48,692 bases of DNA. It comes from a virus (lineage: Duplodnaviria > Heunggongvirae > Uroviricota > Caudoviricetes). The position numbers and the translations under genes are program-made. This document shows, in pieces, positions 1 through 48,692 of the stretch. Location of the stretch: the IMG/VR virus record IMGVR_UViG_2654588006_000004; one strand, 5' to 3'. Below the pieces are notes generated by a model. It was given only the letters and a program-made list of their open reading frames with translations, made no database searches and had not been told where the DNA came from. Each line of letters opens with the position of its first letter. Position 1 is the stretch's first letter.

Positions 1-7
1 CATCCAG

Positions 8-40
8 CCGCAGCACGTTCTTGCGCACGACGTGCTGCGG
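8..40. repeat. Perfect 11-bp inverted repeat (CCGCAGCACGT / ACGTGCTGCGG) with 11-nt spacer, just 3' of tfa
   Basis: Read directly: 8-18 is the reverse complement of 30-40. No U-tract follows on the minus strand, so not a canonical intrinsic terminator. Confidence 0.5.
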
Positions 41-54
41 CATAATCCCAATGA

Positions 55-639
55 TTACTCCCTGACAGGATTTGCAGGCCACTCAATATCAGGTGCAGTT
101 GATGTATCAACACGGTTCAGCAATACCCGATACTTCTTCCAGGCTTCCAGCAACGACGCCTCTTCTTCCGTTGCGATCTCCAGATCTACAGCATCCTGAA
201 GCGGCGCTATATGCTCACTGGCTACCTGCATCAGGCTGTTTTTTGTTTCTTCCGCCTCCCGGATCCGGAACAGTTTTTCTGCTTCCGTATCCTTCACCCA
301 GACTGTACCGTTCCACTTCTGAAACTCCCCTTCCGGGGATAACCAGGTGACATTTTCCGGTAATGAGCCGAGTTCAGAAATAAATAACGCGTCGCCGGAA
401 GCCACGTCATAGACCGTTTTACCACGATGGTCTTCAACGAGATGCCACGATGCCTCATCACTGTTGAAAACAGCCACGAAGCCTGCCGGAATATCTGGCG
501 GTGCAATATCGGTACTGTTTGCAGGCAGACCTGTATGAGGCGGAATATATGCGTCACCTTCACCAATAAATTCATTAGTTCCGGCCAGCAGGTTATAAAT
601 TTTTATGGTCCGTGCTTGTTCACTCATTCTGAATGCCAT
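55..639 (-). CDS. tfaR: Tail fibre assembly protein (Tfa)
   Basis: 194-aa ORF immediately downstream of the side tail fibre gene; resembles lambda/Rac Tfa. Start codon overlaps the stf stop at 639. Confidence 0.85.
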
Positions 640-3600
640 TATGCGAGCCTCACAATATAGTTAAATGCGATGTTTTTGACGGTGTTTTCCGCGTTACCAG
701 CAGCGTTAACGGTGATGGTGTGTCCATGTGAGCCAATCGCAACCGAGTGCGTATGCGCACCAATACCTACAGTATGTGCATGTGCGCCAGAACTTGCTGC
801 AGTACCAGACAGCGAGTGGGTATGAGCACCTGCTGACTGTGTCTGAATACGTTGATAATACGATCTACTGGAAGAAGTCCCCGGGCTTACTTGATACTGT
901 GAATCCTTGACATAAGTGAACCCACCGCCATCATAAAATGCTAACGCAGAACCGCCGCCTCCTGGCCAACGAATACCATTACCATGAGTATGAGCACCGG
1001 CAGACCCCGTAGAGCCACTCAGACTGTGCGTATGCGCCCCGGTGTTATTCGTGGATTTAGTGCCGTAATCAAACGACGATGTGGTTTTCGTCCCCAAATC
1101 CGTACTGGATGCGCTGGCGCTGTGGGTGTGCGATTTAATGCCGTCCTGTTCCTGAGACAATACGGCACGACCACTGGCAGGTTTGCCCTTAATCGTCCAG
1201 CCACGCATATCAGGGATCACGCCTGACGGATAAGCGGCAGCAAGTTTCGGGTAGGCAGATTTGTCAAAAGTCTGCCCCTGCATCAGGGCATAACCAGACG
1301 GAACGGTATCTGATGGCCACGGGATTGGTGCGCCGACTGGGTAGCTTTCTGGTGGAAGATTTTTCGAGGTATAAACTTCTGCCCAGTCTTCCTCAAAACC
1401 ATAGCCATCTCTTGAAGAACGGTAGAACAGACCACCATTTCTGTAATGCGCCTTCATCTGCAGGGTCCGGCAACTTCCGACTCCGGTATAGAAGTTAACC
1501 AGAATATAGCTGTCGCCAGAGCGGGTGACATTATAAGCGCCTGATTCGGCATTCCAGGGAACGCCACCATCCGCATCGGCATATGTATCCGTTGCCCTTC
1601 TGGCAAAAGCAGCCACATGCGCGGCGGTTAAAGTAATATCTCTGGAACCATCAAACTCAACACCAGAAACCCGTCTTGGCGTTTGCAGCTTTGTTGCTGT
1701 TAATGCATTACCGTTCAGACTTGCGGACAGTTTGGTTCCAATAACCAGTTCGCCGGTTGCGTTATCAATAGCAAACGGTCTTAATGTATTCCAGCCACCA
1801 TAAACATCACCTTGATTGGTAAGCAGCAGGTAAGTTTTAGCGCCATCATTACGCCATAATGCACCATACTCCCCACCTATCATTCGAATCTGATTACCAC
1901 CACGCGCTACAATTTCGTCTGTGGCAAAAAGTTTTTTGCACGACAAGTTATCGTTAACGATTAACGAATGAGACTCATAAAAACCACGGCCACTCTTAAA
2001 ATCAAGGATAACGTCCGCCGCGATACATTCAGTCGCTGGATTTGTTGCCCCAAACTTATAGGTCGTATCATTAACAACGAGATCAGCACCAGGTGCGGAT
2101 ATTGACAGGCCATCTTCAATAAACGCAAAAACAGGGAAAGCAGCACCATCAACATAGAACACAGAGCGCAAATCATCGCCCTTATTACTCATCATTATTG
2201 AGTGGATGGCTCGTTCATTGTTTTGATATTGCCAGAACATTCCATAAGCATAACGCCCCCTGTCAGTCCAGCCACCAGGCATAACAAACCCGTTAAACTC
2301 GCAGTTATTCATCGGATCGCCTGCGGTTCGCGTTGCCGTGGTGATAATGACCCTTGATGCCAGTTCGCTTACTGAGCCAGCAGAACGCATAACAACAACA
2401 GGGTAATATCTTCCAGATATTGCACCTGCAGGAGCGTTAACCCGCACATAACGCATACCACGCTTATCAGCAAAGTCTGTTTTACTGACCGCGTTAATGT
2501 TGTTCAGGAAGCGTCCCTTATCGGGTATATCAGCGCCGTTCTGGTCTTTCTGCAGACGTTTCTCTGCATTGTCATAGGCTGATTTTACTGCCTTTGGCGT
2601 TGCCGCCAGCGTTTCAGACGAACTGTTGGTCGCACTGCTGAGCTGTACTATCCCCTTTTTCGTCGTGCTCGCATCCTCAAGCGCCACGGCGGATGCAATA
2701 TCCTCTGCCCGTTTTGCCGCTGTCTCAGCGCGCGTTGCTGCGGATTCCGCCGTACTTTTGCTCTGAGCTGCTGCCGTCGCACTGCCAGCTGCCTCTGTCG
2801 CCTTCGTGGATGCCGTCGTGGCGCTGCTCTTCGCTGCTGACGCCTGTCTGGTCGCCTCATCTTTTGAAGCAGACGCAGATGATGCCGATGACGCTGCCGA
2901 ACTGGCGGACGATGCGGCTGCCGTTTTTGAGGATTCTGCACGGGTTTCCGACGCTTTCGCATTCGTTTCGGATGTCTTCGCTGCGGAAGCAGACCTCGCT
3001 GCTGCGCTGGCCTGTACAGCGGCTTCGCCAGCCTTCGTTGTGGCTGTTGAAGCGGACGATGCAGCACTTTCTGCCGATTTTCCGGCGGCGGTGGCACTGG
3101 CTGAGGCCTGCCCGGCATTTGTTGACGCGGCGCTGGCAGATGAGGCAGCCGCTGTTTTTGAGTCTGCTGCTGCGGAGGCACTCTGTGCTGCTGCCGTCTC
3201 AGAAGACTTAGCGTTCGTCTCGGACGTTTTTGCCGCCTTCGCGGAATTTCCTGCCGCTGTTGCCGAGGAAGCTGCGCTGCTGGCGCTCGAGGCTGCGCTC
3301 GTTTCTGATGATTTTGCCGCCTCTTTTGAAGCCGACGCATCCCGGGCTGAGGTGGCAGCTTCTGACGCTTTCGTGGTCGCGGTGGATGCTGAAGTGGCTG
3401 CTGATTGTTGTGACGCTGCCGCATTCGTTTCTGACGTTTTTGCCGCAGCGGCACTGGTGGCCGCCGCGCTTTTTGAGGACTCTGCAGCGGCAGCACTTTT
3501 TGATGCTTCAGTGGCCTTTGCTGATGCCGTTCCTGCGCTGGAAGACGCTGACTGAGCCGACGAAGCGGCCTGTCCGGCTGACGTGCTGGCTGCGCGTGCT

Positions 3601-4052
3601 GAGCCTGCAGCATCAGTCGCATGGGTTGCCGCCTCACGGGCAGATGTGCCGGCATCGCCGGCTGACTTCTTCGCGGCTGCCGTGTTCTGTGCCACTGCGG
3701 ACGCGTTACGCGCCACCTCTTCCACCATCAGTTCAAAACGGCGCAGTGCCTCTGGCCGGACATCATCCTCCGTCATTGCACCGAGGAAATCATTCAGTGT
3801 GCCCGGCTTTGAGTCCTCATATACGGTGATAATCCCGGCGTGTGACGGCGGGAATCCCTCCACCAACAGACTGACGCTGTACTGACCATACTCGACGTCC
3901 ATTGTGTAACGCCCGGCTTCATCCGGGTTTTCTGAGGCCACTGTGTTCACCACCACCGTGGTGCTGTTGCGCCTGGCCTTTAGCTGAATGGTGCAGTTTT
4001 GTATCGGCTTACCTGCGCCATCTTTCAGTACACCTGAAATCCGTACTGCCAT
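639..4052 (-). CDS. stfR: Side tail fibre protein (Stf)
   Basis: 1137-aa ORF; N-terminus [38 protein letters not shown] closely matches the recalled lambda Stf N-terminus; long Ala/Ser-rich repeat core; His-rich C-terminal receptor-binding region. Confidence 0.9.
2650..3650 (-). repeat. Low-complexity Ala/Ser/Thr-rich repeat region inside stf
   Basis: Protein shows reiterated [10 protein letters not shown] / KTSETNA units; compositional bias leaves two other frames open (Arg-rich 2648-3655 minus, Ala/Asp-rich 2806-3555 plus). Confidence 0.7.
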
Positions 4053-4116
4053 ATTCCCCCCACAAAAAAGCCCGCCTGAACCGGCGGGCTGTCATAACAC
4101 TGTGTTACCTGGCTAA

Positions 4117-4716
4117 TCAGAATTTATAACCGACACCCACGATGAAACTGTTGGTACGCCAGTCACCGCTGCCGGAGCCTTCATAAGCGACGTCAACGGC
4201 CACGGATTCGGTCGGGTTAAACTGCACGCCAGCTCCCCACGCCAGAGACGTGTTGCTGTGGCGACCGTCATCACTTCCGGTCAGCACATCGTGCGTTTTC
4301 CCCTTGTTGTCAGTTACGCGGATATAATCCCCGGAGAAAGTCGACACACGGCTGTAAGCCATACCCGCCATCGCATACGCGCTGAACCATTCATTCACGC
4401 GCACAGACGGCCCCGCCATCACGCTGAACCAGCGATTACGCACGGAATCCTCATGCCAGCGGGTATCGCTGTAATGCGTTTTTTGCTCATCTTCAGCGTT
4501 GGCATAACTGAATGACGTAATCAGCCCCAGCGTGTCCGTAAACTCATAACGGTATTTCACGTTAATCCCGTTCAGATTTTCGCTGCCGGGAGCGTTCGTA
4601 CGGGCATGAAGATACCCTGCGCTCAGTGTGGCCTGCTGCTCAGACGCCCATGCAGGCGCACCGGATACGGCCAGACAGATGGCTGCGGACAAAATGGCTG
4701 CACAAACTTTACGCAT
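4117..4716 (-). CDS. lom: Lom-like outer membrane protein (Ail/Lom family)
   Basis: 199-aa ORF with signal peptide (AICLAVSGAPAWA) and C-terminal beta-barrel ending GVGYKF; located between J and stf as in lambda. Intact here. Confidence 0.9.
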   Translation of the reverse strand: MRKVCAAILSAAICLAVSGAPAWASEQQATLSAGYLHARTNAPGSENLNGINVKYRYEFTDTLGLITSFSYANAEDEQKTHYSDTRWHEDSVRNRWFSVMAGPSVRVNEWFSAYAMAGMAYSRVSTFSGDYIRVTDNKGKTHDVLTGSDDGRHSNTSLAWGAGVQFNPTESVAVDVAYEGSGSGDWRTNSFIVGVGYKF

Positions 4717-4783
4717 AATTACCTCTCGCTTTTCTGCAATAAAAAAGGCGCCATTTCTGGCGCCCGTATATGGGTTATAAAAT

Positions 4784-7700
4784 TCAGCTGATACTGATGC
4801 CTGCGGTGGCTTTCTTCATCACCACAACCAGCAAATCGCTGATACTTGCTGTGGGATACCAGTCATTTACCAGCCATGCTGACACCGAAAACTCCAGCGT
4901 CATGTGGCCGTGACCAGCTGGCATATCAATAACACCACTGTAAATCAGCGTATTATCCAGCGCGGTACGGTTATAAATTTCAGCACCATTTTTCTTCACT
5001 ATCAGGCGGCATGAGGAGTAAATATCAGTATGCTCTCTCTCATGTTTAGCACCGCTGAATGCCACCGCCGGAATAACAATCTGCCGGTCAAACGGCTGAT
5101 CGTCATAAATCCTGACGGTAATGGTCCCTGATGGCCACCGCTCCGGTGCCCGGGAGTCCCGCGGGAAAGCCTTACCCACTGTTTTGACAATATCGCCTTC
5201 AATCTGGTTGGCTGACAGTTTCCCTTTAATCTGACAGTTCTCATTTATCGTAACGTTGTTGAGCGTCCCGGCGTTCGCATTCACACTGCCACTGATATCT
5301 GCATTTTTAGCGGTCAGCTTTCCGTCCGGTGTCATGGAAAATGCAGGAGGATTACCGCCGCTGGTAATGGTGGGAGCCGTCAGATATTTCAGGAACACTT
5401 CATTCATGAATATCTGATCACCCTGACCAACAAACATCGGTTTTGTGTTGCCATTTGCAGGATTAATCATCGCAATCCTGTCTGCCGCCAGCAGCACCTG
5501 ACTCTGCATGCCGTCGGGGGTGTTCTCAATACCGACACCGATACCCGCAATATAAAGGCGTCCGTCCTGCATCTGCTGCAGCTTCACAGCCCACATGCTG
5601 TTCAGGTTATTATTTGTATCAACCTGAACCTTCTGTATCTGCTGAATTGCCGCACTCTGGTCTTCCAGTTTCTTATTGACGGTCTGCGTGATTTCATTGC
5701 TGACATCCGTAATGGACGTCCTGATTTCAGCCAGGTCAGGCGCAAGCTGACCGTTATCAATCTGCGTCCACAGCTCCTGAGCCAGATGGGTTTTCCCTAT
5801 CTCGCCTTTGAAAAAATCCAGATAACCGGATGCATCATCACTCGGCTGACCAACAGCCTCCACGAATGCCGATTTGCCAACGGTGTTCACACTGCGGATA
5901 TAAAAGTAATAATCATGGCCCGGTTTGATATTGATACTGGCGGCTATCCAGTACAGCGCCGTGCCAAGATAGCGTGCTGTGGTTTCAACCTGCCTGATAT
6001 CCGCAATCCGCTTTTCCGAGAACCAGAACTCAAACTGTACCGTCGGATCATAAACCGCAAGATGCGGCGTGGCGGTTATCTGAAAATAGCCCGGCGTCAG
6101 CTCAATCCGCGACGGCGCTGCCGGTGCGGCAATCCGGAACGATACCGACGCCGGATCGCCCTGCTGCCCCCACGCATTTACTGCCCGGACTGTCAGCCTG
6201 TAGTTCCCCAGCGCCAGTTGTGTGAAGCGGTAAGTGGTTTCCGTCGTCCGGGCCGTGCTGACCAGCCGCTCACTGCCGTCATCCGCTGTTACGGTCAGAC
6301 GGAGCAGGAAGCTCACGCCCTTCACCACCTTCGGCGTGTCCCAGCGCGCCAGCACCTGATATTCCCCGCTGTCTGCGGTGACTTCGGCAGTCAGGTGCTG
6401 CACCGCTGGCGGCGTGACACCATTCACCGTGCCGCTCTGGTCGCCGTCAAAGTGCGCCCCGTTATCCACGATGGCCTCTTTTTCCGGTACATGCTGCACG
6501 GCGGTGATGGCATACGTGCCGTCGTCGTTCTCACGGATACTCACGCAGCGGAACAGGCGCTGGCGCAGCGTCGGCAGCTTCAGCCCCCACACGCTGTATT
6601 CAGCAACACCGTCAGGAACACGGCTCACTTTCACCTTCACGCCGTCGGTGACGGACTGGACCTCCACGCTGACCGGATTGCCACTTCCGTCAACCAGGCT
6701 TATCAGCGTGGTACCGGAGGATGGCAGCGTGATTTCACGGTCGAGCGTCAGCGTCCGGGTCTGGCTGTTCACCGCCAGCACGCGCCCGCCGGTGCTGATA
6801 CCGGCATAGTCATCATCGCAGATTTCAATGACATCGCCCGGTACATGGCGAAGCCCTTCAGCACCCACGCTGAAGTCCACGGTCTGCGTTTCCAGCAGCT
6901 CCGTTTTAATCAGCCACAGCCCGGCGCGGTGTGCCTGCCCCCGGCTGGTACAGCCAAAGGCATCCATCTTCGTGACGTTACGACCGTAACGGGCAATGGC
7001 CTGCGTATCCTCCACAAGCTCTGTCGCCGTCTCCCAGCCGTTGTTCGGGTCAATCCAGTTCACCTCAACGGCATTATGGCGGTCCTTCAGGGCGCTGAAG
7101 CTGTAGCGGAACGGCGCGCCATCATCCGGCATCACCACATTACTGCGGTTATAGGTCCACACCTTATCTGATGGTCGGTCCTGCACGAACGTCAGCGTCT
7201 GCCCGTTCCATACCGGCATACAGCGCATCGCCGAGCAGAAATCACTGAGAACATCCCACACCTTACGCTGTGTGGTCAGCCAGGCATTACAGGTGATGCG
7301 CGGCTCCGTGCCGCCAAAACCGTCCGGCACCGACTGGTCGCAACACTGGCCGATGACATACAGCGCCCATTTATCCACATCTGCCGCACCAAGACGTTTA
7401 CCCATGCCGTAGCGCGGGTGGGTCAGCATATCCCACAGACACCAGGCCATGTTGTTGCTGTATGCTGGCTTAAACGTTCCGTCCCAGATACCGCTGTATT
7501 GCCGCGTCTGCGGGTTATAGTTCGACGGCACCTGCAGAATGCGTCCGCGAAGATGATAATTACGGCTCACCTGCTGGCTGCCGAACTGCTCCGAGTCCAC
7601 CTGCACGCCGACCAGTGCCGTGTTCGGGTAGCACTGTTTCACATCGATGATTTCGGTGTATGACGACCAGAGCGTTTTGTTCTGCAGCTGGTCTGTGGTG

Positions 7701-8263
7701 CTGTCCGGCGTCATCCTGCGCATCCGGATATTAAACGGGCGCGGCGGCAGGTTATCCACCACCACCGAGGCCAGATACTGCGAGGTGGTTTTGCCCTTAA
7801 TGGTGATGTCTTTTTCCGTCACCCAGCCACCATTACGCTGTATCTGAACCAGCAGGCGAACTTCCGACGGATTCCGGTCCCCCTTTGAGGTGGTTTCCAC
7901 CAGTGCCTGCACACCGAAGGTAAAGCGCAGACGGTCGATGTTTGCAGACGTAATGGCGCGGGTGATCGGCGTGTCATATTTCACTTCCGTACCCAGCACC
8001 GTCTCGGAGCCGGAGGATTCAAACCCCTCCGGCGGTGTCTGCTCCTGCTCACCGGCACGGAACACCACCGTGACACCGGCGATGTTGGTATTCCCCTCAG
8101 TGTCCAGCACCGGCGTACTGTTCAGCAGCACGCTTTTTAATCCATCCACCGGACCTTCAACCGGCCCTTCGCTGATGGCATCGATCACACTCAGCAACTG
8201 CGTGGACTTCAGGTTGTCCTTCGCTTCGCGCGGGGTATGCCCCTTACTGCTGCCTTTACCCAT
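4784..8263 (-). CDS. J: Tail tip / host specificity protein J
   Basis: 1159-aa ORF; length, position after I and extensive similarity to recalled lambda J. Confidence 0.95.
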
Positions 8264-8323
8264 TCCTCACGCTCCATAAACGACAAAACCGCCCGGAGGC
8301 GGTTTCACATAAAACATTTTGCC

Positions 8324-8971
8324 TCAGCGACCAATCACCACAACCTGACCACCATCCCCTTCGTCTGCCGTGCTGATCTCCTGAGAAACCACACGTGATC
8401 CCACGCGCATTTCACCGTACAGAACAGGCAGAACATTGCCCTGGGCAACCATGTTATCCAGTGACGAGAAATACGTGTTCTGCTTACCGTTATCCGTGCT
8501 GGTCGTTGTTGCGGTACTGGCTTTCGGTGCCAGCATCTGCGCCACACCGCCAAGGATCATACTGGCCCCCGCAGCATACATGCCCGATAAAGCCGCAGCT
8601 CCCAGCCAGCCTGCAGGGTTCCACCACGCCACTGCAATCAGCGCCGCACCCAGCACCGCCTGAAACACACCGCCACTTTTTGCTCCCGCAAGACGCGGAA
8701 CGATGTGGATCACGGCACCATTTTTCAGCGGCTCATTAAGACGGGCTGATAATTCGTTTTCGCCTGCATCACGCCCGGCAATGCGCACCTGATACCAGCC
8801 ATCGCTCAGTTTCTGACGAAACGCCGGGATCTGCATGGCCAGCGCCCGGATGGCTTCGGCCCCCGTTTTCACACGAAGGTCGATGCGGCGGCCAAATCGT
8901 TGCAAATCCCCGTAAAGGCAGATACGTGCCATGCCCGGTGACGCCAGAGGGAGTGTGTGCGTCGCTGCCAT
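8324..8971 (-). CDS. I: Tail assembly protein I
   Basis: 215 aa; N-terminus MAATHTLPLASPGMARICLYGDLQRFGRRIDLRVKTGAEAIRALA matches recalled lambda I; overlaps K by 103 nt as in lambda. Confidence 0.9.
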   Translation of the reverse strand: MAATHTLPLASPGMARICLYGDLQRFGRRIDLRVKTGAEAIRALAMQIPAFRQKLSDGWYQVRIAGRDAGENELSARLNEPLKNGAVIHIVPRLAGAKSGGVFQAVLGAALIAVAWWNPAGWLGAAALSGMYAAGASMILGGVAQMLAPKASTATTTSTDNGKQNTYFSSLDNMVAQGNVLPVLYGEMRVGSRVVSQEISTADEGDGGQVVVIGR

Positions 8972-9612: not shown

Positions 9613-9617
9613 GGGAT

Positions 9618-10316: not shown

Positions 10317-10320
10317 CAGA

Positions 10321-10653
10321 TCACCACTTCGTCAAACTGACACGAAAAATCGGTATAGGTGATATGTTCTGTCGCTGACCACGTTCGACACACCACTCTG
10401 ATTTTTCTGTTAATACCAGGCGGGCGCCAAAAAAATATTTATAGCCTTCATGCCGGGCTAAAAATTTTTCAAATGAATCACGTTCATTCGCCTCAACTTT
10501 GAAATCACAGGTGAAAACGCGCAGAGAATGATTAAGTCCATTTGGACTTCGTTGCTCATAACCATCGCCAAATCTTACAGTTTTTATCGATGGTTTATTT
10601 TCTGTTTTCATTCCATCCTCTGGTAACCAGTGAAATTCTTCCGTATTAGCCAC
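10321..10653 (-). CDS. M: Minor tail protein M-like
   Basis: 110 aa; VRFGDGYEQRSPNGLN resembles lambda M VRFGDGYSQRAPAGLN; overlaps end of tape measure gene by 8 nt. Confidence 0.7.
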   Translation of the reverse strand: MANTEEFHWLPEDGMKTENKPSIKTVRFGDGYEQRSPNGLNHSLRVFTCDFKVEANERDSFEKFLARHEGYKYFFGARLVLTEKSEWCVERGQRQNISPIPIFRVSLTKW

Positions 10654-11386: not shown

Positions 11387-11392
11387 TTTCTC

Positions 11393-38709: not shown

Positions 38710-38715
38710 GGTCAG

Positions 38716-39573: not shown

Positions 39574-39585
39574 GGAAACTTTTGC

Positions 39586-40008
39586 TTAATGAACAATGAC
39601 AGAATCGTCGGAAGAACCGCCGCCGCTGAAATGCGCTTTCCGGTAAACGGCTTGGACTGCATCATCATGCGCATCAATTGCCGTACTTAACGCTTCCTGC
39701 GCCGCCAGTAATGCACGGCGTTCCAGGGTATCGAAGATGCAGAGTCGGTGACGCAGCTCGCGCGGAAGGATTGCCAGAATTGCTGGGATCAGCTTCTGAA
39801 TTTTTTCTCTTTGCGTTTTCGTTTCACCTTTCAACCAACGGTGATAGATATTCTGCTGATTGTTCCAGTCCTTGCCTGGAACCAGGGGCAATTCGCCGCC
39901 CCCCTGGCGCAGATATTCTTCAGTAATTGCATTGGCTACCCATGCCTGCCCTTTTTCGGCTGCTAGGGCAAACAACACTGATTCGATGTGCTCATGCTTG
40001 ATTTTCAT
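39586..40008 (-). CDS. ydaT: YdaT (CII-like regulator / toxic protein)
   Basis: 140 aa; matches recalled Rac YdaT; follows ydaS. Confidence 0.85.
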   Translation of the reverse strand: MKIKHEHIESVLFALAAEKGQAWVANAITEEYLRQGGGELPLVPGKDWNNQQNIYHRWLKGETKTQREKIQKLIPAILAILPRELRHRLCIFDTLERRALLAAQEALSTAIDAHDDAVQAVYRKAHFSGGGSSDDSVIVH

Positions 40009-40030
40009 GAATCATTTGCCTCTTGATGTT

Positions 40031-40327
40031 TCAGGTATGATCAAATGAGGATTTGTTACTGTCATTTAGTTGCTTCACTGACATATTCTGCGAACAACAT
40101 GCCGAACGTCGTAAATATGACCAGTCAATATCAGGACGAAGTTCTTCGCACAGAACCTCACCTCTTGTTGCACGTTCAATTGCTGGACATCTCTCGGCAG
40201 GCAATTGACGTACCCCTTTGATCCATTGATTTACGCTTGGAGGTGATACACCTAAAAGCCTAGCCATTGCTGATTGCCCACCGACAACAGCACAAGCTTG
40301 CTTGAATGAATAGTTCTCTTTTTTCAT
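40031..40327 (-). CDS. ydaS: YdaS (Cro-like HTH protein)
   Basis: 98 aa; HTH QSAMARLLGVSPPSVNQWIKG; divergent from racR. Confidence 0.85.
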   Translation of the reverse strand: MKKENYSFKQACAVVGGQSAMARLLGVSPPSVNQWIKGVRQLPAERCPAIERATRGEVLCEELRPDIDWSYLRRSACCSQNMSVKQLNDSNKSSFDHT

Positions 40328-40353
40328 CGAATGAACTCCAAAAACACACAGAA

Positions 40354-40383
40354 ATATTAGGCGACGCCTAACGCAATTGTCAA
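40354..40383 (-). promoter_or_regulatory. PR-like promoter for ydaS (consensus -35 TTGACA, 18-bp spacer, -10 TAATAT)
   Basis: Minus strand reads TTGACA-attgcgttaggcgtcgcc-TAATAT; the spacer contains the palindrome TTAGGCGACGCCTAA. Confidence 0.5.
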
Positions 40384-40437
40384 TAGGCTGTGCCTAATGC
40401 GGTAAGGGTAGGGATTGCCTAATGTAATGCGCATAGG
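40357..40437. promoter_or_regulatory. Operator cluster between ydaS and racR (TAGGC/GCCTA palindromes)
   Basis: TTAGGCG-A-CGCCTAA (40357-40371), TAGGC-TGT-GCCTA (40384-40396), imperfect GCCTAAT...CATAGG (40417-40437). Confidence 0.55.
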
Positions 40438-40450
40438 AGAATATTAAGCA

Positions 40451-40927
40451 ATGCTTAGTGGTAAAGACTTAGGCCGAGCGATAGAGCAGGCCATTAACAA
40501 AAAAATCGCATCGGGATCCGTCAAATCAAAGGCGGAGGTCGCACGCCACTTCAAAGTCCAACCACCATCAATTTATGACTGGATTAAGAAAGGCTCTATA
40601 AGTAAAGATAAACTTCCAGAATTATGGCGTTTCTTTTCTGATGTTGTTGGTCCAGAGCATTGGGGGCTTAACGAATACCCCATACCAACCCCCACCAATT
40701 CAGATACAAAAAGTGAACTTTTAGATATAAACAACCTTTATCAAGCAGCCTCTGATGAAATAAGAGCGATTGTAGCTTTCCTGTTATCTGGAAATGCTAC
40801 AGAACCAGATTGGGTTGACCACGATGTTCGCGCCTATATAGCAGCGATGGAAATGAAAGTGGGTAAGTATCTGAAAGCTCTAGAATCTGAACGGAAAAGC
40901 CAGAACATCACAAAAACTGGAACTTAA
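40451..40927 (+). CDS. racR: Prophage repressor RacR
   Basis: 158 aa; matches recalled RacR; GGAG SD 8 nt upstream. Confidence 0.9.
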   Translation: MLSGKDLGRAIEQAINKKIASGSVKSKAEVARHFKVQPPSIYDWIKKGSISKDKLPELWRFFSDVVGPEHWGLNEYPIPTPTNSDTKSELLDINNLYQAASDEIRAIVAFLLSGNATEPDWVDHDVRAYIAAMEMKVGKYLKALESERKSQNITKTGT

Positions 40928-41000
40928 ACTTATATGGTCTGACGGAAAACTCCTGGATTCCGTTATTTAACCCCCCCATCACTTTCTGCTGTCGCCATCA

Positions 41001-41063
41001 CCTATTAGGTTACGCTCAAAACATTAGGCATAGCCTATTGACAATCAATTAGGCATTACCTAT
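41001..41063. promoter_or_regulatory. Second operator cluster downstream of racR (OL-like)
   Basis: CCTA-T-TAGG (41001-41009), TAGGC-ATA-GCCTA (41025-41037), TTAGGCATTACCTA (41049-41062); same half-site as the racR-ydaS operators. Confidence 0.5.
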
Positions 41064-41066
41064 AGT
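41038..41066 (+). promoter_or_regulatory. PL-like promoter (TTGACA, 17-bp spacer, TATAGT) driving ydaG-ydaF and the early-left operon
   Basis: Read directly; -35 abuts one operator palindrome and the spacer/-10 overlap another. Confidence 0.5.
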
Positions 41067-41235
41067 TCCAGCATACCACCCACCCCGCCCCACAGAACGC
41101 CGGGCAATACTTCGAGTTACCAGGCAGTGGTAAGGGGTTAAGTAGCCAGCCCGAGGCGTATGAACATGACGGCGGGATTCAAATTTTGCAGTGCAGCAGT
41201 TAGTTCCGCCACCCGGCGTTAAGGGGAGAGATAAG

Positions 41236-41370
41236 ATGGTGCATTACGAAGTAGTTCAGTATTTGATGGATTGTTGCGGTATCACTTACAACCAGGCTGT
41301 GCAGGCTTTACGCAGCAACGACTGGGATCTCTGGCAGGCAGAAGTCGCTATACGTAGCAACAAGATGTGA
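41236..41370 (+). CDS. ydaG: Small protein YdaG
   Basis: 44-aa ORF MVHYEVVQYLMDCCGITYNQAVQALRSNDWDLWQAEVAIRSNKM (below the track cutoff); AAGGGGAG SD; matches recalled Rac YdaG. Confidence 0.7.
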   Translation: MVHYEVVQYLMDCCGITYNQAVQALRSNDWDLWQAEVAIRSNKM

Positions 41371-41380
41371 GATTCGCAAA

Positions 41381-41536
41381 ATGCAAAAAATCGACCTCGG
41401 CAACAACGAATCCCTGGTGTGCGGCGTGTTCCCCAACCAGGATGGAACGTTCACTGCCATGACGTATACCAAAAGCAAAACATTTAAAACCGAAACTGGT
41501 GCGCGCCGATGGTTGGAGAAGCACACAGTAAGCTAA
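41381..41536 (+). CDS. ydaF: Small protein YdaF
   Basis: 51-aa ORF MQKIDLGNNESLVCGVFPNQDGTFTAMTYTKSKTFKTETGARRWLEKHTVS translated by hand; 10 nt after ydaG. Confidence 0.7.
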   Translation: MQKIDLGNNESLVCGVFPNQDGTFTAMTYTKSKTFKTETGARRWLEKHTVS

Positions 41537-42021
41537 CGATTAAAACGTCTACTCCTGCTGTTCCAGAATAACTTCATAAAATGGGAGTATTTTTCGGTGA
41601 CGAGATAATAAGAACAGTTTGCGCTATCACTCTGATGTTGAATGATGCCCTTCCGTTCTAATTTTTTCATAACCGGGTTACGGCAAGGAGAAGTGATAAT
41701 AAGATTTCCTGTTTTAAGGAAATCTTTAAATACAGCGATTTCTTTCTCAGATAAACGAAGCAATACTCGTTGCTCTGGTAGTAATGAATAATGCTTTTGA
41801 ATATGTGCTCGCAATCTTGAGAAGGAAATGGCGACCACGAAAGAAAAGGCAAAAACGATAATCTGAAAGAGCCAAGGTATTTCAGTATAAGCATTGAATG
41901 CGGCAGTAAACTCTTTCGGTATCAGCCAGAGAGTGAGACCAAAAATGATAATCGTATACATAAGTCTTTCGAGTGGCTCGTTAGCAAAAAGTTTCAACAA
42001 TGGAGTAAATACATCCAACAT
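41533..42021 (-). CDS. sieB: Superinfection exclusion protein SieB
   Basis: 162 aa from MLDVFTPLLKLFANEPLERLMYTIIIFGLTLWLIP...; membrane protein; track ORF extends upstream to 42144. Confidence 0.85.
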   Translation of the reverse strand: MLDVFTPLLKLFANEPLERLMYTIIIFGLTLWLIPKEFTAAFNAYTEIPWLFQIIVFAFSFVVAISFSRLRAHIQKHYSLLPEQRVLLRLSEKEIAVFKDFLKTGNLIITSPCRNPVMKKLERKGIIQHQSDSANCSYYLVTEKYSHFMKLFWNSRSRRFNR

Positions 42022-42462
42022 ATCAATAACTCTCAACTGTAAGGGTATTGAAATGTTAACACAAGCTCTCGCTGTAGGGGTATAGCCGAGACCACCGAAG
42101 CCCGGAGGTGGTGAAATAAAACCGGGCACAACACGAAGGCGCATTTCCGATATCCATAAAGAGTCGGTCTTGTCTGTTAAATTTAAATGGTGGGAGTGCG
42201 CCTCCGGTTGTAAATAACGACATTGCTGTGTGTAGTCCTGGCGGCATCAGTTTTTTTCTTGAAGTTCGGCTGATGTCCGCCCTTTTTAAAGTGAATTTTG
42301 TGATGCGGTGAATGCGGCTAAGCGCACGTGGCACAGTTAAAAGTCATGTTAGTCCTTATTGGTTTGGGTGGGAAAGCCGACTGTAATTGTTAACTGGTTG
42401 CAGTCACCTGGAGGCACCAGGCACCGCATCAACAAAGTTCATTTGTAAAAATGGAGATAATT

Positions 42463-42684
42463 ATGATTGCACATCACTTCGGAACTGATGAAATACCACG
42501 TCAGTGTGTGACTCCTGGCGATTATGTTCTTCATGAAGGCCGGACATATATTGCCTCGGCAAACAATATTAAAAAGCGAAAACTATATATTCGTAACCTG
42601 ACCACAAAAACATGCATTACTGACCGCATGATTAAAGTCTTCCTCGGTCGTGATGGTTTACCTGTAAAGGCGGAGTCATGGTGA
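42463..42684 (+). CDS. kilR: Cell-division inhibitor KilR
   Basis: 73 aa [35 protein letters not shown]... matches recalled KilR; GGAG SD. Confidence 0.9.
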
Positions 42685-42854
42685 TGCCTAAGAAAATAAA
42701 ATGTGCTTACCACCTTTGCAAAAAAGACGTTGAAGAAAGCAAAGCTATTGAAAGAATGCTTCACTTCATGCACGGGATTTTATCAAAAGACGAACCGAGA
42801 AAATATTGCAGTGAAGCTTGTGCCGAAAAAGACCAGATGGCACATGAACTTTAA
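42684..42854 (+). CDS. ydaE: Small Cys-containing protein YdaE
   Basis: 56-aa [59 protein letters not shown]; ATG overlaps the kilR stop (TGATG); below the track cutoff. Confidence 0.7.
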   Translation: MPKKIKCAYHLCKKDVEESKAIERMLHFMHGILSKDEPRKYCSEACAEKDQMAHEL

Positions 42855-42928
42855 TTAATTGACTATTCGAAACTGAATTTATGCCAGAAATGGCAGGTAT
42901 TCGCTCAACCTTAATTAAGGAGAAAAAC

Positions 42929-43204
42929 ATGATTACCAATTATGAAGCCACTGTTGTAACTACCGATGACATTGTTCACGAGGTGAATCTGGAAGGAAAG
43001 CGCATTGGCTACGTAATTAAAACAGAAAATAAAGAAACCCCATTCACTGTGGTTGATATCGATGGTCCATCAGGCAACGTAAAAACACTTGATGAAGGTG
43101 TCAAAAAAATGTGCCTGGTGCATATCGGAAAGAATCTGCCCGCAGAAAAAAAAGCCGAATTTCTGGCAACTCTAATTGCAATGAAATTAAAAGGTGAAAT
43201 CTGA
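42929..43204 (+). CDS. racC: RacC
   Basis: 91 aa from MITNYEATVVTTDDIVHEVNLEGKR...; AAGGAG SD. Confidence 0.85.
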   Translation: MITNYEATVVTTDDIVHEVNLEGKRIGYVIKTENKETPFTVVDIDGPSGNVKTLDEGVKKMCLVHIGKNLPAEKKAEFLATLIAMKLKGEI

Positions 43205-43305
43205 AAGAAATAGCCTGCGTATGGCGCAGGCTATGAACAGTGTGTATCCGGCAAGATCATTCACTGAACAAAACGAATTTTAATCTGAGTTGAGGTTAAA
43301 AAACA

Positions 43306-45906
43306 ATGAGCACAAAACCACTCTTCCTGTTACGGAAAGCGAAAAAATCATCCGGTGAACCTGACGTCGTCCTGTGGGCAAGCAACGATTTTGAATCGAC
43401 CTGTGCCACTCTGGACTACCTGATCGTTAAGTCAGGTAAAAAACTGAGCAGCTATTTTAAAGCTGTTGCCACGAATTTTCCTGTCGTTAATGACCTGCCC
43501 GCTGAAGGTGAGATCGATTTTACCTGGAGTGAACGCTATCAACTCAGCAAAGACTCCATGACATGGGAACTAAAACCGGGAGCAGCACCAGACAACGCTC
43601 ATTATCAAGGCAATACCAACGTCAACGGCGAAGACATGACTGAGATTGAGGAGAATATGCTACTCCCAATTTCTGGCCAGGAACTGCCCATTCGTTGGCT
43701 TGCTCAACACGGCAGCGAAAAACCGGTAACGCACGTTTCACGCGACGGACTCCAGGCATTACACATTGCTCGGGCTGAAGAACTACCGGCTGTTACTGCC
43801 CTGGCTGTTTCCCACAAAACCAGCCTGCTCGACCCGCTGGAAATTCGCGAACTCCACAAACTGGTTCGTGACACTGACAAAGTTTTCCCTAATCCTGGTA
43901 ATTCAAACCTGGGACTGATAACTGCTTTTTTCGAAGCATACCTGAACGCTGACTACACCGATCGAGGACTGCTGACAAAAGAGTGGATGAAGGGTAATCG
44001 TGTTTCACACATCACTCGCACGGCTTCCGGTGCTAATGCTGGCGGCGGAAACCTCACCGATCGCGGCGAAGGTTTCGTACACGATCTGACGTCACTGGCG
44101 CGCGACGTAGCCACTGGCGTACTGGCCCGTTCAATGGATCTGGACATCTATAACCTTCATCCGGCACACGCTAAACGCATTGAGGAAATTATCGCTGAAA
44201 ATAAACCGCCCTTTTCTGTTTTCCGCGACAAATTCATCACCATGCCTGGCGGGCTGGATTATTCCCGCGCCATCGTGGTTGCGTCCGTAAAAGAAGCACC
44301 AATTGGGATCGAGGTCATCCCCGCGCACGTCACTGAATATCTGAACAAAGTACTGACTGAAACCGATCATGCCAACCCTGATCCGGAAATCGTGGATATT
44401 GCCTGCGGTCGCTCCTCTGCCCCGATGCCGCAGCGAGTAACAGAAGAAGGAAAACAGGATGATGAAGAAAAACCGCAACCATCTGGAACAACGGCAGTTG
44501 AACAGGGAGAGGCTGAAACAATGGAACCGGACGCAACTGAACATCATCAGGACACGCAGCCGCTGGATGCTCAGTCACAGGTAAATTCTGTTGATGCGAA
44601 ATATCAGGAACTGCGGGCAGAACTCCATGAAGCCCGGAAAAACATTCCATCAAAAAATCCTGTCGATGCCGATAAATTGCTTGCTGCATCACGTGGTGAA
44701 TTTGTTGACGGAATTAGCGACCCGAACGATCCGAAATGGGTAAAGGGGATCCAGACTCGCGATTGTGTGTACCAGAACCAGCCAGAAACGGAAAAAACCA
44801 GCCCAGATATGAATCAACCTGAGCCAGTAGTGCAACAGGAACCGGAAATAGCCTGCAATGCCTGCGGCCAGACTGGCGGGGATAACTGCCCTGACTGTGG
44901 TGCGGTGATGGGCGACGCAACATACCAGGAAACATTCGATGAAGAGAGTCAGGTTGAAGCTAAGGAAAATGATCCGGAGGAAATGGAAGGCGCTGAACAT
45001 CCGCACAATGAGAATGCTGGCAGCGATCCGCATCACGATTGCAGTGATGAAACTGGCGAAGTCGCAGATCCCGTAATCGTAGAAGACATAGAGCCAGGTA
45101 TTTATTACGGAATTTCGAATGAGAATTACCACGCGGGTCCCGGTATCAGTAAGTCTCAGCTCGATGACATTGCTGATACTCCGGCACTATATTTGTGGCG
45201 TAAAAATGCCCCCGTGGACACCACAAAGACAAAAACGCTCGATTTAGGAACTGCTTTCCACTGCCGGGTACTTGAACCGGAAGAATTCAGTAACCGCTTT
45301 ATCGTAGCACCTGAATTTAACCGCCGTACAAACGCCGGAAAAGAAGAAGAGAAAGCGTTTCTGATGGAATGCGCAAGCACAGGAAAAACGGTTATCACTG
45401 CGGAAGAAGGCCGGAAAATTGAACTCATGTATCAAAGCGTTATGGCTTTGCCGCTGGGGCAATGGCTTGTTGAAAGCGCCGGACACGCTGAATCATCAAT
45501 TTACTGGGAAGATCCTGAAACAGGAATTTTGTGTCGGTGCCGTCCGGACAAAATTATCCCTGAATTTCACTGGATCATGGACGTGAAAACTACGGCGGAT
45601 ATTCAACGATTCAAAACCGCTTATTACGACTACCGCTATCACGTTCAGGATGCATTCTACAGTGACGGTTATGAAGCACAGTTTGGAGTGCAGCCAACTT
45701 TCGTTTTTCTGGTTGCCAGCACAACTATTGAATGCGGACGTTATCCGGTTGAAATTTTCATGATGGGCGAAGAAGCAAAACTGGCAGGTCAACAGGAATA
45801 TCACCGCAATCTGCGAACCCTGTCTGACTGCCTGAATACCGATGAATGGCCAGCTATTAAGACATTATCACTGCCCCGCTGGGCTAAGGAATATGCAAAT
45901 GACTAA
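43306..45906 (+). CDS. recE: Exonuclease VIII RecE
   Basis: 866 aa, the recalled RecE length; long acidic N-terminal region and C-terminal exonuclease domain; overlaps recT. Confidence 0.95.
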
Positions 45907-46708
45907 GCAACCACCAATCGCAAAAGCCGATCTGCAAAAAACTCAGGGAAACCGTGCACCAGCAGCAGTTAAAAATAGCGACGTGATTAGTTTTATTAAC
46001 CAGCCATCAATGAAAGAGCAACTGGCAGCAGCTCTTCCACGCCATATGACGGCTGAACGTATGATCCGTATCGCCACTACAGAAATTCGTAAAGTTCCGG
46101 CGTTAGGAAACTGTGACACTATGAGTTTTGTCAGTGCGATCGTACAGTGTTCACAGCTCGGACTTGAGCCAGGTAGCGCCCTCGGTCATGCATATTTACT
46201 GCCTTTTGGTAATAAAAACGAAAAGAGCGGTAAAAAGAACGTTCAGCTAATCATTGGCTATCGCGGCATGATTGATCTGGCTCGCCGTTCTGGTCAAATC
46301 GCCAGCCTGTCAGCCCGTGTTGTCCGTGAAGGTGACGAGTTTAGCTTCGAATTTGGCCTTGATGAAAAGTTAATACACCGCCCGGGAGAAAACGAAGATG
46401 CCCCGGTTACCCACGTCTATGCTGTCGCAAGACTGAAAGACGGAGGTACTCAGTTTGAAGTTATGACGCGCAAACAGATTGAGCTGGTGCGCAGCCTGAG
46501 TAAAGCTGGTAATAACGGGCCGTGGGTAACTCACTGGGAAGAAATGGCAAAGAAAACGGCTATTCGTCGCCTGTTCAAATATCTGCCCGTATCAATTGAG
46601 ATCCAGCGTGCAGTATCAATGGATGAAAAGGAACCACTGACAATCGATCCTGCAGATTCCTCTGTATTAACCGGGGAATACAGTGTAATCGATAATTCAG
46701 AGGAATAA
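45899..46708 (+). CDS. recT: Single-strand annealing recombinase RecT
   Basis: 269 aa from [21 protein letters not shown]...; ATG embedded in the recE terminal codons. Confidence 0.95.
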
Positions 46709-46764
46709 TTCAGCCTGGCGGTGTAATGCACCGCCAACTTGAAATATTTTTTATGAGAAAAATT

Positions 46765-46959
46765 ATGAGATATGACAATGTTAAACCATGTCCATTTTGT
46801 GGTTGTCCATCAGTAACGGTGAAAGCCATTTCAGGATATTACCGAGCGAAGTGTAACGGATGCGAATCCCGAACCGGTTATGGTGGAAGTGAAAAAGAAG
46901 CACTCGAAAGATGGAATAAACGAACCACTGGAAATAATAATGGAGGTGTTCATGTATAA
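46765..46959 (+). CDS. ralR: Restriction alleviation protein RalR (Lar)
   Basis: 64 aa from MRYDNVKPCPFCGCPSVTVKAISGYYRAKCNGCESR... matches recalled RalR. Confidence 0.85.
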   Translation: MRYDNVKPCPFCGCPSVTVKAISGYYRAKCNGCESRTGYGGSEKEALERWNKRTTGNNNGGVHV

Positions 46960-47161
46960 AATTACCGCCACTATTGAAAAGGAAGGTGGCACTCCTACTA
47001 ACTGGACAAGATATTCAAAATCTAAACTAACGAAATCAGAATGCGAAAAAATGCTCTCAGGTAAAAAAGAAGCAGGCGTTTCCAGAGAGCAGAAAGTAAA
47101 ACTGATAAATTTTAATTGCGAGAAACTTCAGTCCTCGAGAATTGCATTGTATTCAAATTAA
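46952..47161 (+). CDS. ydaC: YdaC
   Basis: 69 aa from MYKITATIEKEGGTPTNWTRY...; GGAGG SD; overlaps ralR 3' end by 8 nt. Confidence 0.7.
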   Translation: MYKITATIEKEGGTPTNWTRYSKSKLTKSECEKMLSGKKEAGVSREQKVKLINFNCEKLQSSRIALYSN

Positions 47162-47239
47162 AACTTCATAGCTGATTATTAATAATCAACATCGGGCGTC
47201 AATTTCAGTCTAACATTGGCGCCTGCCAGAGGTGATGCG

Positions 47240-47455
47240 ATGGCACAAGTAATCTTTAATGAAGAGTGGATGGTTGAATACGGCCTGATGCTTCGCACTG
47301 GTCTGGGGGCCAGACAAATTGAAGCATACCGCCAGAACTGTTGGGTGGAGGGCTTCCACTTCAAACGAGTATCTCCTTTAGGTAAGCCAGACAGCAAACG
47401 AGGGATTATCTGGTACAACTATCCAAAGATAAATCAGTTTATCAAAGACTCATGA
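47240..47455 (+). CDS. xisR: Excisionase XisR
   Basis: 71 aa from [33 protein letters not shown]...; immediately upstream of int. Confidence 0.8.
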
Positions 47456-47456
47456 T

Positions 47457-48692
47457 ATGTCTAAATTACCAACAGGTGTCGAGATTAGAGGTAGATACAT
47501 TCGCATCTGGTTCATGTTTCGAGGAAAACGATGTCGGGAAACATTAAAAGGCTGGGAGATTACAAACAGTAATATTAAAAAGGCCGGAAATTTAAGAGCG
47601 CTGATAGTTCATGAAATAAACTCCGGTGAATTTGAGTATTTAAGACGTTTTCCCCAGTCCAGCACTGGGGCAAAAATGGTGACAACGAGAGTCATAAAAA
47701 CGTTCGGAGAGCTTTGTGATATCTGGACAAAAATTAAAGAGACAGAGTTAACAACAAACACAATGAAGAAAACGAAATCACAATTAAAAACACTCAGAAT
47801 AATAGTTTGTGAAAGTACCCCGATATCACATATTCGTTATAGCGATATCTTAAACTACCGGAATGAACTGCTGCATGGAGAAACGCTTTACCTGGATAAT
47901 CCAAGATCCAACAAAAAAGGAAGAACCGTGCGCACAGTTGATAACTATATCGCCCTGCTCTGTTCGCTGTTGCGTTTTGCGTATCAGTCGGGATTTATAT
48001 CAACCAAACCATTTGAAGGAGTAAAAAAATTACAGCGAAACAGAATAAAGCCTGATCCGTTATCTAAAACAGAATTCAATGCATTAATGGAAAGTGAAAA
48101 AGGACAGAGCCAGAACTTGTGGAAATTTGCCGTTTACTCAGGACTTCGTCACGGGGAACTGGCAGCTCTGGCGTGGGAGGATGTGGATCTCGAAAAGGGA
48201 ATAGTGAATGTCAGAAGAAACCTGACGATACTTGATATGTTCGGTCCCCCAAAAACAAATGCCGGGATCCGAACAGTAACACTACTGCAGCCTGCTCTTG
48301 AAGCACTGAAGGAGCAATACAAACTGACCGGGCATCATCGCAAAAGCGAAATCATCTTTTATCATCGGGAGTACGGCAGAACCGAAAAGCAAAAACTGCA
48401 TTTTGTTTTCATGCCCAGGGTGTGTAACGGAAAACAAAAACCTTATTACTCGGTAAGCAGTTTGGGGGCAAGGTGGAATGCAGCAGTAAAACGTGCTGGT
48501 ATTCGCCGCCGTAATCCGTACCATACGCGGCATACTTTTGCCTGCTGGCTGTTGACGGCAGGAGCGAACCCGGCATTTATAGCCAGCCAAATGGGGCATG
48601 AAACTGCGCAGATGGTGTATGAAATTTACGGTATGTGGATTGATGACATGAACGACGAACAGATAGCCATGTTGAATGCGCGGTTATCGTAG
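47457..48692 (+). CDS. intR: Tyrosine integrase IntR
   Basis: 411 aa; C-terminal catalytic region with HTRHTFA...Y motif region; last gene in the window. Confidence 0.9.
   Translation: MSKLPTGVEIRGRYIRIWFMFRGKRCRETLKGWEITNSNIKKAGNLRALIVHEINSGEFEYLRRFPQSSTGAKMVTTRVIKTFGELCDIWTKIKETELTTNTMKKTKSQLKTLRIIVCESTPISHIRYSDILNYRNELLHGETLYLDNPRSNKKGRTVRTVDNYIALLCSLLRFAYQSGFISTKPFEGVKKLQRNRIKPDPLSKTEFNALMESEKGQSQNLWKFAVYSGLRHGELAALAWEDVDLEKGIVNVRRNLTILDMFGPPKTNAGIRTVTLLQPALEALKEQYKLTGHHRKSEIIFYHREYGRTEKQKLHFVFMPRVCNGKQKPYYSVSSLGARWNAAVKRAGIRRRNPYHTRHTFACWLLTAGANPAFIASQMGHETAQMVYEIYGMWIDDMNDEQIAMLNARLS

Follow-up and report, generated by a model that had tools for sequence, protein, structure and literature searches.

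A tail-defective Rac-family prophage that very probably preserves the layout of Escherichia coli K-12 Rac before three large deletions

Introduction

According to a review, Rac occupies the ttcA locus in 69% of 638 strains; the same review describes the Escherichia coli K-12 copy as incomplete and its counterpart in EDL933 as intact (PMC6379469). Sp10, another full-size relative, can reportedly be transferred to K-12 and is described as retaining all of its morphogenetic genes; its ExoVIII-type recombination system is likewise reported as intact (PMC2669165, PMC4632033). Here, we describe IMG/VR record IMGVR_UViG_2654588006_000004, a stretch of viral DNA of 48,692 nt (hereafter the window, meaning the whole of this stretch). 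The window very probably represents ~48.7 kb of a ~53-kb Rac-family lambdoid prophage at ttcA, with the structure that K-12 Rac had before three large deletions and an IS5 insertion, in a copy that was recently inactivated and is tail-defective. Positions below are those of the window, and genes lie on its minus strand unless stated otherwise.

Results

Relation to K-12 Rac

We aligned MG1655 positions 1405000-1440000, which include Rac (NC_000913.3 1411899-1434958), with the window by blastn. The two share six colinear blocks, with no inversion or translocation. These cover 73-836 (tfaR and the end of stfR; 93% identity), 1009-4306 (stfR and lomR; 95.4%), 4301-4474 (lomR fragment 1; 97.7%), 12945-14702 (ynaA and ydaY; 99.0%), 25943-28366 (ynaK, trkG and rzoR/rzpR; 99.4%) and 37491-48692 (ydaW to intR; 99.8%). 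The alignment crosses the IS5 site uninterrupted in the lom gene of the window, whereas K-12 lomR is split there by IS5. At the protein level, all 17 K-12 early products from intR to ydaV map full length in the window at 98-100% identity and contain no stops. The initial annotation of the sequence, made from its letters alone, had assigned it to the Rac family and had recognized the K-12 early genes and an unbroken lom; the alignment over the whole window and the early proteins bear out each of these assignments.

Read from the blocks and their junctions, K-12 Rac would correspond to the window element minus three clean deletions and plus IS5 in lom. The first deletion (window 4475-12944, ~8.4 kb) takes part of lom, most of the tape measure gene and everything between them; divergence of the lom sequences makes the placement of its left edge approximate. 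The second (14703-25942, 11,240 bp) takes the start of the tail assembly chaperone gene, the tube, connector, head, terminase and TAGT-family genes and extends into the ParB-like gene; its flanks abut in K-12 (locus 20630/20631). The third (28367-37490, ~9.1 kb) comprises the start of Rz, the lysozyme, holin and TolA-like genes, the Q/nin region, an island gene, the ren-like gene and the end of the DUF1627 gene, with flanks that are adjacent or within 5 bp of each other in K-12. The edges can be placed within a few bases for two of the deletions and within a few tens of bases for the third. In these three blocks the window holds ~28.8 kb that are absent from K-12, and it can serve, as had been proposed for it, as a reference for what K-12 Rac lost.

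The same comparison accounts for four K-12 genes. K-12 ynaK equals residues 1-86 of the 263-aa ParB-like protein of the window. K-12 ydaY equals the last 116 residues of the tail assembly chaperone, with ydaY residues 4-119 mapping at 100%. K-12 ydaW consists of the first 151 aa of the DUF1627 protein fused to Rz DNA, and ynaA of the first 312 codons of the tape measure gene, reading on into lom DNA. The four K-12 genes are therefore best explained as deletion products, since each corresponds to a shortened or fused part of a longer gene in the window.

Defects in the tail module

To screen the window for lesions, we compared it with every structural protein of the prophage of avian pathogenic E. 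coli (APEC) E14033. All were full length except at three loci, each of which lies in the tail module. The first is the tape measure gene (10646-13879; 3234 nt), in which codon 829 (11393-11395) is TAG instead of the CAG found in relatives. The Tape_meas_lam_C domain lies downstream of this stop, and the 61-bp amber site was matched exactly in none of the 704 complete genomes that carry the segment. The second is a 320-bp deletion at 16110/16111, with a junction ambiguity of 1 nt. It leaves a fusion open reading frame (ORF) of 149 aa (15850-16299), in which the first 63 aa of the tail-completion/Neck1 protein are joined in frame to the last 86 aa of the tail terminator (phrog_169, residues 1-81; phrog_179, residues 64-148). 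In 39 of 39 genomes sampled evenly from 732 matches, this stretch measured 770 bp and not 450. The third is the gpM homologue (10321-10653; Pfam Phage_min_tail), in which the T run at 10430-10437 is one base short. The reading frame is lost for the final 36 residues, the Phage_min_tail match ends at profile position 74 of 108 and lambda M aligns in two frames; among 666 complete genomes, none matched the lesion site exactly.

An exact look-up of the fusion protein returned the same protein in three public contigs. Two of these contigs, from the draft assemblies GCA_013047645.1 and GCA_002511815.1, match window 8053-26300 and 9607-26300, respectively, at 99.97% identity. The TAG codon and the 320-bp deletion are found in each of them, and in each the gpM tract is intact. 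The recurrence of the first two lesions in independent drafts shows that they are real, inherited lesions of a small lineage. The initial annotation had called the prophage intact and its tail module complete, having seen only the amber codon. Neither description can be kept: the tape measure, tail-completion/terminator and gpM genes are broken, and three broken tail genes point to a prophage that was recently inactivated.

The genes for immunity, excision, recombination, replication, lysis, packaging and the head are all open and near-identical to functional or conserved homologues. Removal of the repressor would be expected to lead to excision, replication, head filling and cell lysis. Tail assembly would fail, with a tape measure that ends before the lambda-type C-terminal domain, a fused completion/terminator protein and, in the window copy, a frameshifted gpM. 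The resulting particles would be non-infectious unless another phage supplied the tails.

Extent and prevalence of the element

The right end of the window coincides exactly with the intR stop codon, and its left end starts just upstream of tfa. In relatives of 99.7-99.9% identity, ttcA starts 52 bp past intR. The 26-bp attachment (att) core (TTGTTCAGGTTGTATTGTTCTTTCTT) lies 76 bp past the right end of the window in VTB96926v and ~4.65 kb to the left of window position 1 in APEC E14033, and the distance between the two cores in KMi025 is ~53.4 kb. The left end missing from the window carries, in E14033 and KMi025, an alpha/beta hydrolase gene and ompT, to which E14033 alone adds an S-adenosylmethionine (SAM)-dependent methyltransferase gene; the left flank in relatives (loci L003 1165-5000 and L007 7051-9673) is without the pinR-ynaE-ynaM genes of K-12. 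We also considered that the window might be an assembly chimera and rejected this, as near-identical, overlapping public sequences span 1-16110, 8053-26300 and 21501-48692. A tRNA scan of the window found none.

A megablast search of the two window halves against 5426 complete E. coli genomes gave different frequencies for the two. The left, structural half (1-24500) was covered to at least 80% in 667 genomes (~12%), the right half in only 41, three of them at 99.9% identity. APEC VTB96926v is the closest relative of the right half, and its RefSeq annotation gives the Rac early genes in K-12 order. A ynaK/ydaY junction of the K-12 type occurred in at most 348 of the 5426 genomes. Near-identical elements have been deposited as PHASTER-predicted 'phages', for example vB_EcoS-683R6; among the deposited records that we found, none documents a plaque-forming isolate carrying the structural module of the window.

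The element type is already known and widespread, and the ttcA element is decaying independently across lineages. Besides the tail lesions described above, VTB96926v is without window 775-20303, KMi025 has ydaS and tolA pseudogenes, the DUF1627 gene of E62 contains a stop, and the Mu-F-like gene is split in the draft GCA_002511815.1.

Mosaic structure of the late region

The tail tip and side fibre genes are of lambda type. From the left end, they comprise the genes for the tail fibre assembly protein Tfa (55-639; Caudo_TAP) and the 1137-aa StfR homologue (639-4052; side tail fibre with phage_tail_N, Gp34_trimer and Collar domains), both full length relative to APEC E14033 and to K-12 tfaR and stfR, followed by a complete lom of 199 aa (4117-4716; Ail_Lom profile 1-199/199). 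An Rfam match to IS009 (98-296, minus strand; 222 bits) falls wholly within the tail fibre assembly gene. Next come J (4784-8263; 84% identical to lambda), I (8324-8971; 79%), K (8869-9612; 95%) and L (9618-10316; 94%). Identity to lambda reaches 94% in Tfa (orf-194) and 64-85% in segments of Stf, is 44% in Lom, and drops to 41% in M and 28% in H.

Beyond L, the picture changes. DNA that is 94-95% identical to the lambda-like phages mEp332, ev099 and Kati ends at window 10338, and the GC content, 0.567 over J to L, is only 0.445 over M and the tape measure gene. Together, the end of the shared DNA and the drop in GC mark a mosaic joint at the L/M boundary (~10320-10340). Upstream of the tape measure gene lie a tail assembly chaperone pair of the G/GT type (14043-14812; phrog_313) and a 320-aa tail tube protein (14861-15823; Pfam Phage_tube_2). 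No tblastn match at E ≤ 1e-3 was obtained in the window for lambda V, U, Z, G, T, FII or W, and the tail shaft shares only gene order and frameshift logic with lambda. A slippery A-AAA-AAG (14357-14363, minus strand) stands two codons ahead of the stop of the chaperone ORF, while the -1 frame continues uninterrupted into the following ORF. Such a site indicates a conserved programmed frameshift of the G/GT type, which K-12 still has within ydaY. The earlier description of the tail as lambda-like thus applies to L, K, I, J, Stf and Tfa (65-95% identity); it does not extend to M and H at their lower identities, nor to V, U, Z, G, T and the connectors, for which lambda gave no match.

The head and packaging module (16300-24289) consists of genes that are all open, full length and 97-100% identical to those of APEC E14033. 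It encodes the connectors Hc1 (16300-16683) and Ad1 (16683-17078), a 58-aa protein next to the latter, a P22-type coat protein (17301-18440), a scaffold (18539-19303; DUF6651, phrog_206), a Mu-F-like head morphogenesis protein (19408-20523), a portal (20504-21910; DUF4055, phrog_145), TerL (21913-23214; Terminase_6N/6C) and a 364-aa TerS (23195-24289; Terminase_2, phrog_51), the connectors, coat and Mu-F-like protein being assigned by Pfam/PHROGs. The Mu-F-like protein and the scaffold fit SPP1/P22-style heads. In L012 (5778-6892; contig NLVV01000048.1 of GCA_002511815.1), the Mu-F-like gene is called as two ORFs of 190 and 181 aa, reflecting either a lineage-specific lesion or an assembly error.

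Lambda head and terminase proteins, including Nu1/A, had no match in the window. Among isolated phages, the nearest TerL proteins are those of Pseudomonas phage Medea1 (70% identity) and of the siphophage groups Kagunavirus (~52%) and Jerseyvirus (~44%). Phages of the Kagunavirus and Jerseyvirus groups package by headful. For the element described here, the protein families indicate a pac-type module and make headful packaging a reasonable inference. A mosaic with a pac-type head (long TerS, Mu-F-like protein and scaffold), as the initial annotation had suggested, agrees with these families and with the joint at the L/M boundary. We also considered whether the element, at ~53.4 kb, might be too long for its capsid, as it exceeds the genomes of most TerL relatives (41-45 kb); that of the closest, Medea1, measures 58.9 kb. 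Sequence searches against solved structures returned nothing for TerL or the coat protein and only distant portal matches for the portal. Directly upstream of the real terS, a 69-aa ORF (24296-24502) matches positions 145-218 of the 319 in phrog_309 and is probably the scar of a past exchange of the packaging module.

Lysis, late regulation and cargo

All genes of the lysis cassette are open, and those for packaging and the head are full length against relatives; the initial annotation had called all three modules complete. The cassette includes Rz (27929-28393; Phage_lysis) with an embedded Rz1/rzoR (27988-28173) that has a lipobox, a lysozyme of the SAR (signal-arrest-release) type (28390-28923; Phage_lysozyme) and the holin EssD (29616-29831; named by RefSeq in a 99.7%-identical locus), with a DUF1327/YdfR gene (29267-29611; Pfam DUF1327) between the latter two. 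Two paralogous lipoproteins with a TolA C-terminal domain follow (30083-30457 and 30629-31057; PF06519, phrog_5772), carrying the lipoboxes VAGC and IIGC; their presence confirms part of the extra cargo proposed earlier. The protein encoded at 30629-31057 is intact in the window and an N-terminally truncated pseudogene in KMi025, E62 and NCTC9699. A purely speculative role for these lipoproteins would be to interfere with the entry of Tol-dependent phages or colicins. PADLOC matched neither the TolA-like proteins nor sieB or the ren-like gene to a known defence system.

An STnc100 RNA motif (31168-31354; Rfam RF02076, 83 bits; gathering score 47) lies within a gene-poor stretch of ~1 kb just downstream of the Q-like gene and, from its position, is probably a late-operon leader. 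The regulatory genes themselves are Q-like DUF1133 (32102-32644), YbcO (32641-32931) and NinB/Orf-like DUF1367 (32931-33530; phrog_319 NinB), all three assigned by Pfam.

On the other side of the lysis cassette lies the potassium transporter moron trkG (26334-27791; GC 0.38), whose product is 99.8% identical to K-12 TrkG. Next to it are a ParB-like protein of 263 aa (25405-26196; phrog_842, with phrog_620 matched over 3-217/217) and a TET-associated glycosyltransferase of the TAGT family (24480-25412; PF20691), which RefSeq names 'GREB1-related'. Neither a TET/JBP gene nor a methyltransferase gene lies near this glycosyltransferase/ParB-like pair. In relatives, the ParB-like gene bears the PGAP label 'ynaK pseudogene'; we rejected truncation in the window, because the ORF spans PHROG 620 end to end. 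The ParB-methyltransferase profile of PADLOC matches only the N-terminal part of the protein, and the gene might derive from a longer ancestral fusion.

A further cargo gene, the other part of the proposed extra cargo, occupies a slot (33531-36758) between the ren-like DUF977 and the ninB-like DUF1367 genes, in a region with a GC content of 0.35. This island gene (34185-36659, plus strand) encodes 824 aa with, by Pfam, a restriction-endonuclease-like N-terminal domain of the HSDR_N type and a P-loop NTPase of the STAND/Cdc6-like (KAP/STAND-like) kind. The slot holds the same gene in VTB96926v, iteA/iteS in KMi025, DUF262, AAA ATPase and hok genes in E62, and DUF262, TPR protein and hok genes in NCTC9699. 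The island protein matches phrog_14719 over its full length and has 595 homologues at E ≤ 1e-5; the 120 matches listed range from 49 to 100% identity and come from many Gammaproteobacteria. In Pseudomonas putida and Marinomonas, the homologues are stand-alone genes.

Invariant residues of the island protein comprise D68, E81xK83, the Walker A motif at 306-314 and D441/D444 of Walker B. Its structural model, a confident one (predicted local distance difference test score 81.7), matches the folds of Cdc6/Orc1, Apaf-1/CED-4, NLRP3 and RdrA, and solved structures gave no match by sequence. The island protein has the architecture of antiviral STAND (Avs-like) proteins, with an N-terminal effector domain followed by a central STAND NTPase with conserved Walker motifs. 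PADLOC assigned the protein to no described system, with weak N-terminal matches to DrmMI (1.3e-5) and PDC-M54B (3.9e-5). As a tentative reading, which we put at somewhat below even chances, the gene may encode an undescribed single-gene anti-phage defence protein, with a nuclease-like effector and a STAND/Cdc6-like NTPase, in a swappable Rac cargo slot.

Early region and inducibility

The minus-strand gene run of the ORF listing extends from ~55 to 40300 and is followed by a plus-strand block from ~40450 to the window end; by composition, AT-rich patches lie at 26-28 kb and 34-36 kb. The replication and immunity region (36759-40927) contains the Ren-like DUF977, DUF1627, ydaV (DnaC/IstB-like), ydaU, ydaT and Cro-like ydaS genes on the minus strand and racR (40451-40927) on the plus strand. 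RacR, YdaS, YdaT and YdaV are 100% and YdaU is 99.6% identical to K-12. The early-left region (41236-48692) carries ydaG, ydaF, sieB (minus strand), kilR, ydaE, racC, recE, recT, ralR, rcbA, xisR and intR (47457-48692), so that the recE-recT module is present together with kilR, sieB and ralR/RalA. The RalA antitoxin RNA was found at 46958-47136 on the minus strand (Rfam, 225 bits). IntR and XisR are 99.5% and 100% identical to K-12, and the Arm-DNA-bind_2 and Phage_integrase domains are present.

The overall gene order is canonically lambdoid. RacR faces a rightward operon of YdaS (Cro-like), YdaT, YdaU and YdaV (DnaC-like), which leads to the ren-like gene, the cargo slot, NinB, YbcO, the Q-like regulator and the late operon. 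The latter runs from the two TolA-domain lipoproteins through holin, endolysin, Rz/Rz1, trkG, the ParB-like protein and the glycosyltransferase to the pac-type terminase, portal, Mu-F-like protein, scaffold and coat, and ends with the connectors, the non-lambda tail shaft and the lambda-type tail tip with Lom and side fibres. The leftward early operon reads from kilR through recET to xisR and intR.

RacR had no Pfam match, and no S24 peptidase domain was detected in it. With a repressor lacking a detectable self-cleavage domain, even a copy free of lesions would not be expected to respond to classical SOS induction, and mitomycin C is unlikely to induce the window prophage. The Sp10 repressor has likewise been reported to have no peptidase domain, a feature said to make Sp10 non-inducible by mitomycin C (PMC2669165).

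Discussion

The main practical use of this element is twofold: it offers a base-level account of how K-12 Rac arose and an annotation key for K-12 Rac, including four genes of unknown function. It also illustrates that a prophage that looks complete in gene content can be dead through small lesions, in this case a nonsense codon, a 320-bp in-frame fusion and a homopolymer indel, which PHASTER-style scoring misses.

Several points weigh against the interpretation of the window as a recently inactivated, tail-defective form of K-12 Rac before its deletions. Both att sites and ~4.6 kb of the left end lie outside the window. The descent of K-12 from exactly this structure would follow from the junctions and from 99% flank identity rather than from a phylogeny, and the stf/lom region, at only 93-95% identity to K-12, suggests later exchange there. 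The phage-database records at ≥99% identity that could be traced, which do not include the best one, SPF_0923, are PHASTER predictions. With regard to the lesions, the gpM change lies in a homopolymer, is private to the window and could be a sequencing error. Finally, a supE/glnV44 host, which is common among laboratory K-12 strains, would restore the wild-type glutamine at the tape measure amber codon.

Among the alternatives, the one that survives best regards the element as a domesticated prophage, maintained for the sake of its cargo and its early genes (trkG, recET, sieB, the TolA-like genes and the island), with tail loss tolerated or favoured. K-12, APEC and environmental strains share the early region and trkG at 99-100%, while the loss of structural genes has taken different forms in different lineages, the ren-like/ninB slot holds known or candidate defence genes in each relative, and the occupancy of ttcA reported in the review cited above would also fit. 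Yet the 667 genomes that keep most of the structural half indicate that structural genes are not rapidly purged. We regard domestication as rather unlikely, though it would be compatible with the interpretation of the window as a decayed K-12 Rac ancestor type and does not compete with it exclusively.

A second alternative holds that the window derives from another lambdoid phage, which has only the early region in common with Rac, through recombination, so that its late region would be uninformative about the losses in K-12. Rac-family prophages at ttcA can indeed differ in their late region, as Rac-SA53 does with its baseplate-containing module and LT-II toxin genes; lysis cassettes and cargo vary among otherwise close relatives, and stfR and tfaR share the modest identity to K-12 mentioned above. 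K-12, however, retains late remnants in the same order and orientation at 99%, namely Rz/Rz1, trkG, the N-terminus of the ParB-like protein, the C-terminus of the chaperone, the start of the tape measure gene, lom, stf and tfa, and the flanks of each gap are adjacent or nearly so in K-12. This makes a merely shared early region very improbable.

Least credible of all is a fully intact and inducible prophage whose lesions are sequencing or assembly errors: although no gene outside the three tail loci is interrupted or shortened and the 1-bp loss from the gpM T run, seen only in the window, is of a typical error type, the TAG codon and the 320-bp deletion recur in at least two genomes that were assembled independently, no repeat able to collapse an assembly is present at the deletion junction, and RacR has no detectable self-cleavage domain, which makes SOS induction unexpected (cf. 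PMC2669165).

We therefore retain the reading of the window as most of a Rac-family prophage with the pre-deletion layout of K-12 Rac and a broken tail, and compare it on this basis with described phages and prophages. Kagunavirus, Jerseyvirus and Medea1 are lytic phages with genomes of 41-59 kb, which share the TerL family but no DNA-level identity with the window. Lambda shares the gene order of the tail tip and fibres (L, K, I, J, lom, stf, tfa) and a G/GT-style -1 frameshift in the chaperone, but differs in that the tube of the window belongs to the Phage_tube_2 family.

Closer relatives are found at the ttcA locus itself. Rac-SA53 (KU052037), a prophage with LT-IIa, shares the ttcA att site, intR, recET, kilR, genes of the ydaT/U/V type and the DUF1367-YbcO-Q arrangement, with ~92% identity over 34% of the right half of the window (early region). 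It differs in its structural module, which includes a baseplate and a lytic transglycosylase, in its toxin cargo and in its immunity region of the dicA/dicC type. Sp10 of O157 Sakai and CP-933R of EDL933, compared here by their description in the literature, are full-size ttcA prophages with a Rac-type left end (PMC2669165, PMC4632033). Sp10 is reported to match K-12 Rac at 99% over only ~8 kb (PMC4632033), compared with 11.2 kb at 99.8% plus matching late remnants for the window; unlike Sp10 and CP-933R as described, the window copy has broken tail genes. K-12 Rac shares the integrase and excisionase, immunity, recET, kilR, sieB, ralR/RalA, replication and trkG genes at 98-100% protein identity, and its pinR-ynaE-ttcC end, absent from the window, is replaced in the closest relatives by the methyltransferase, hydrolase and ompT cargo.

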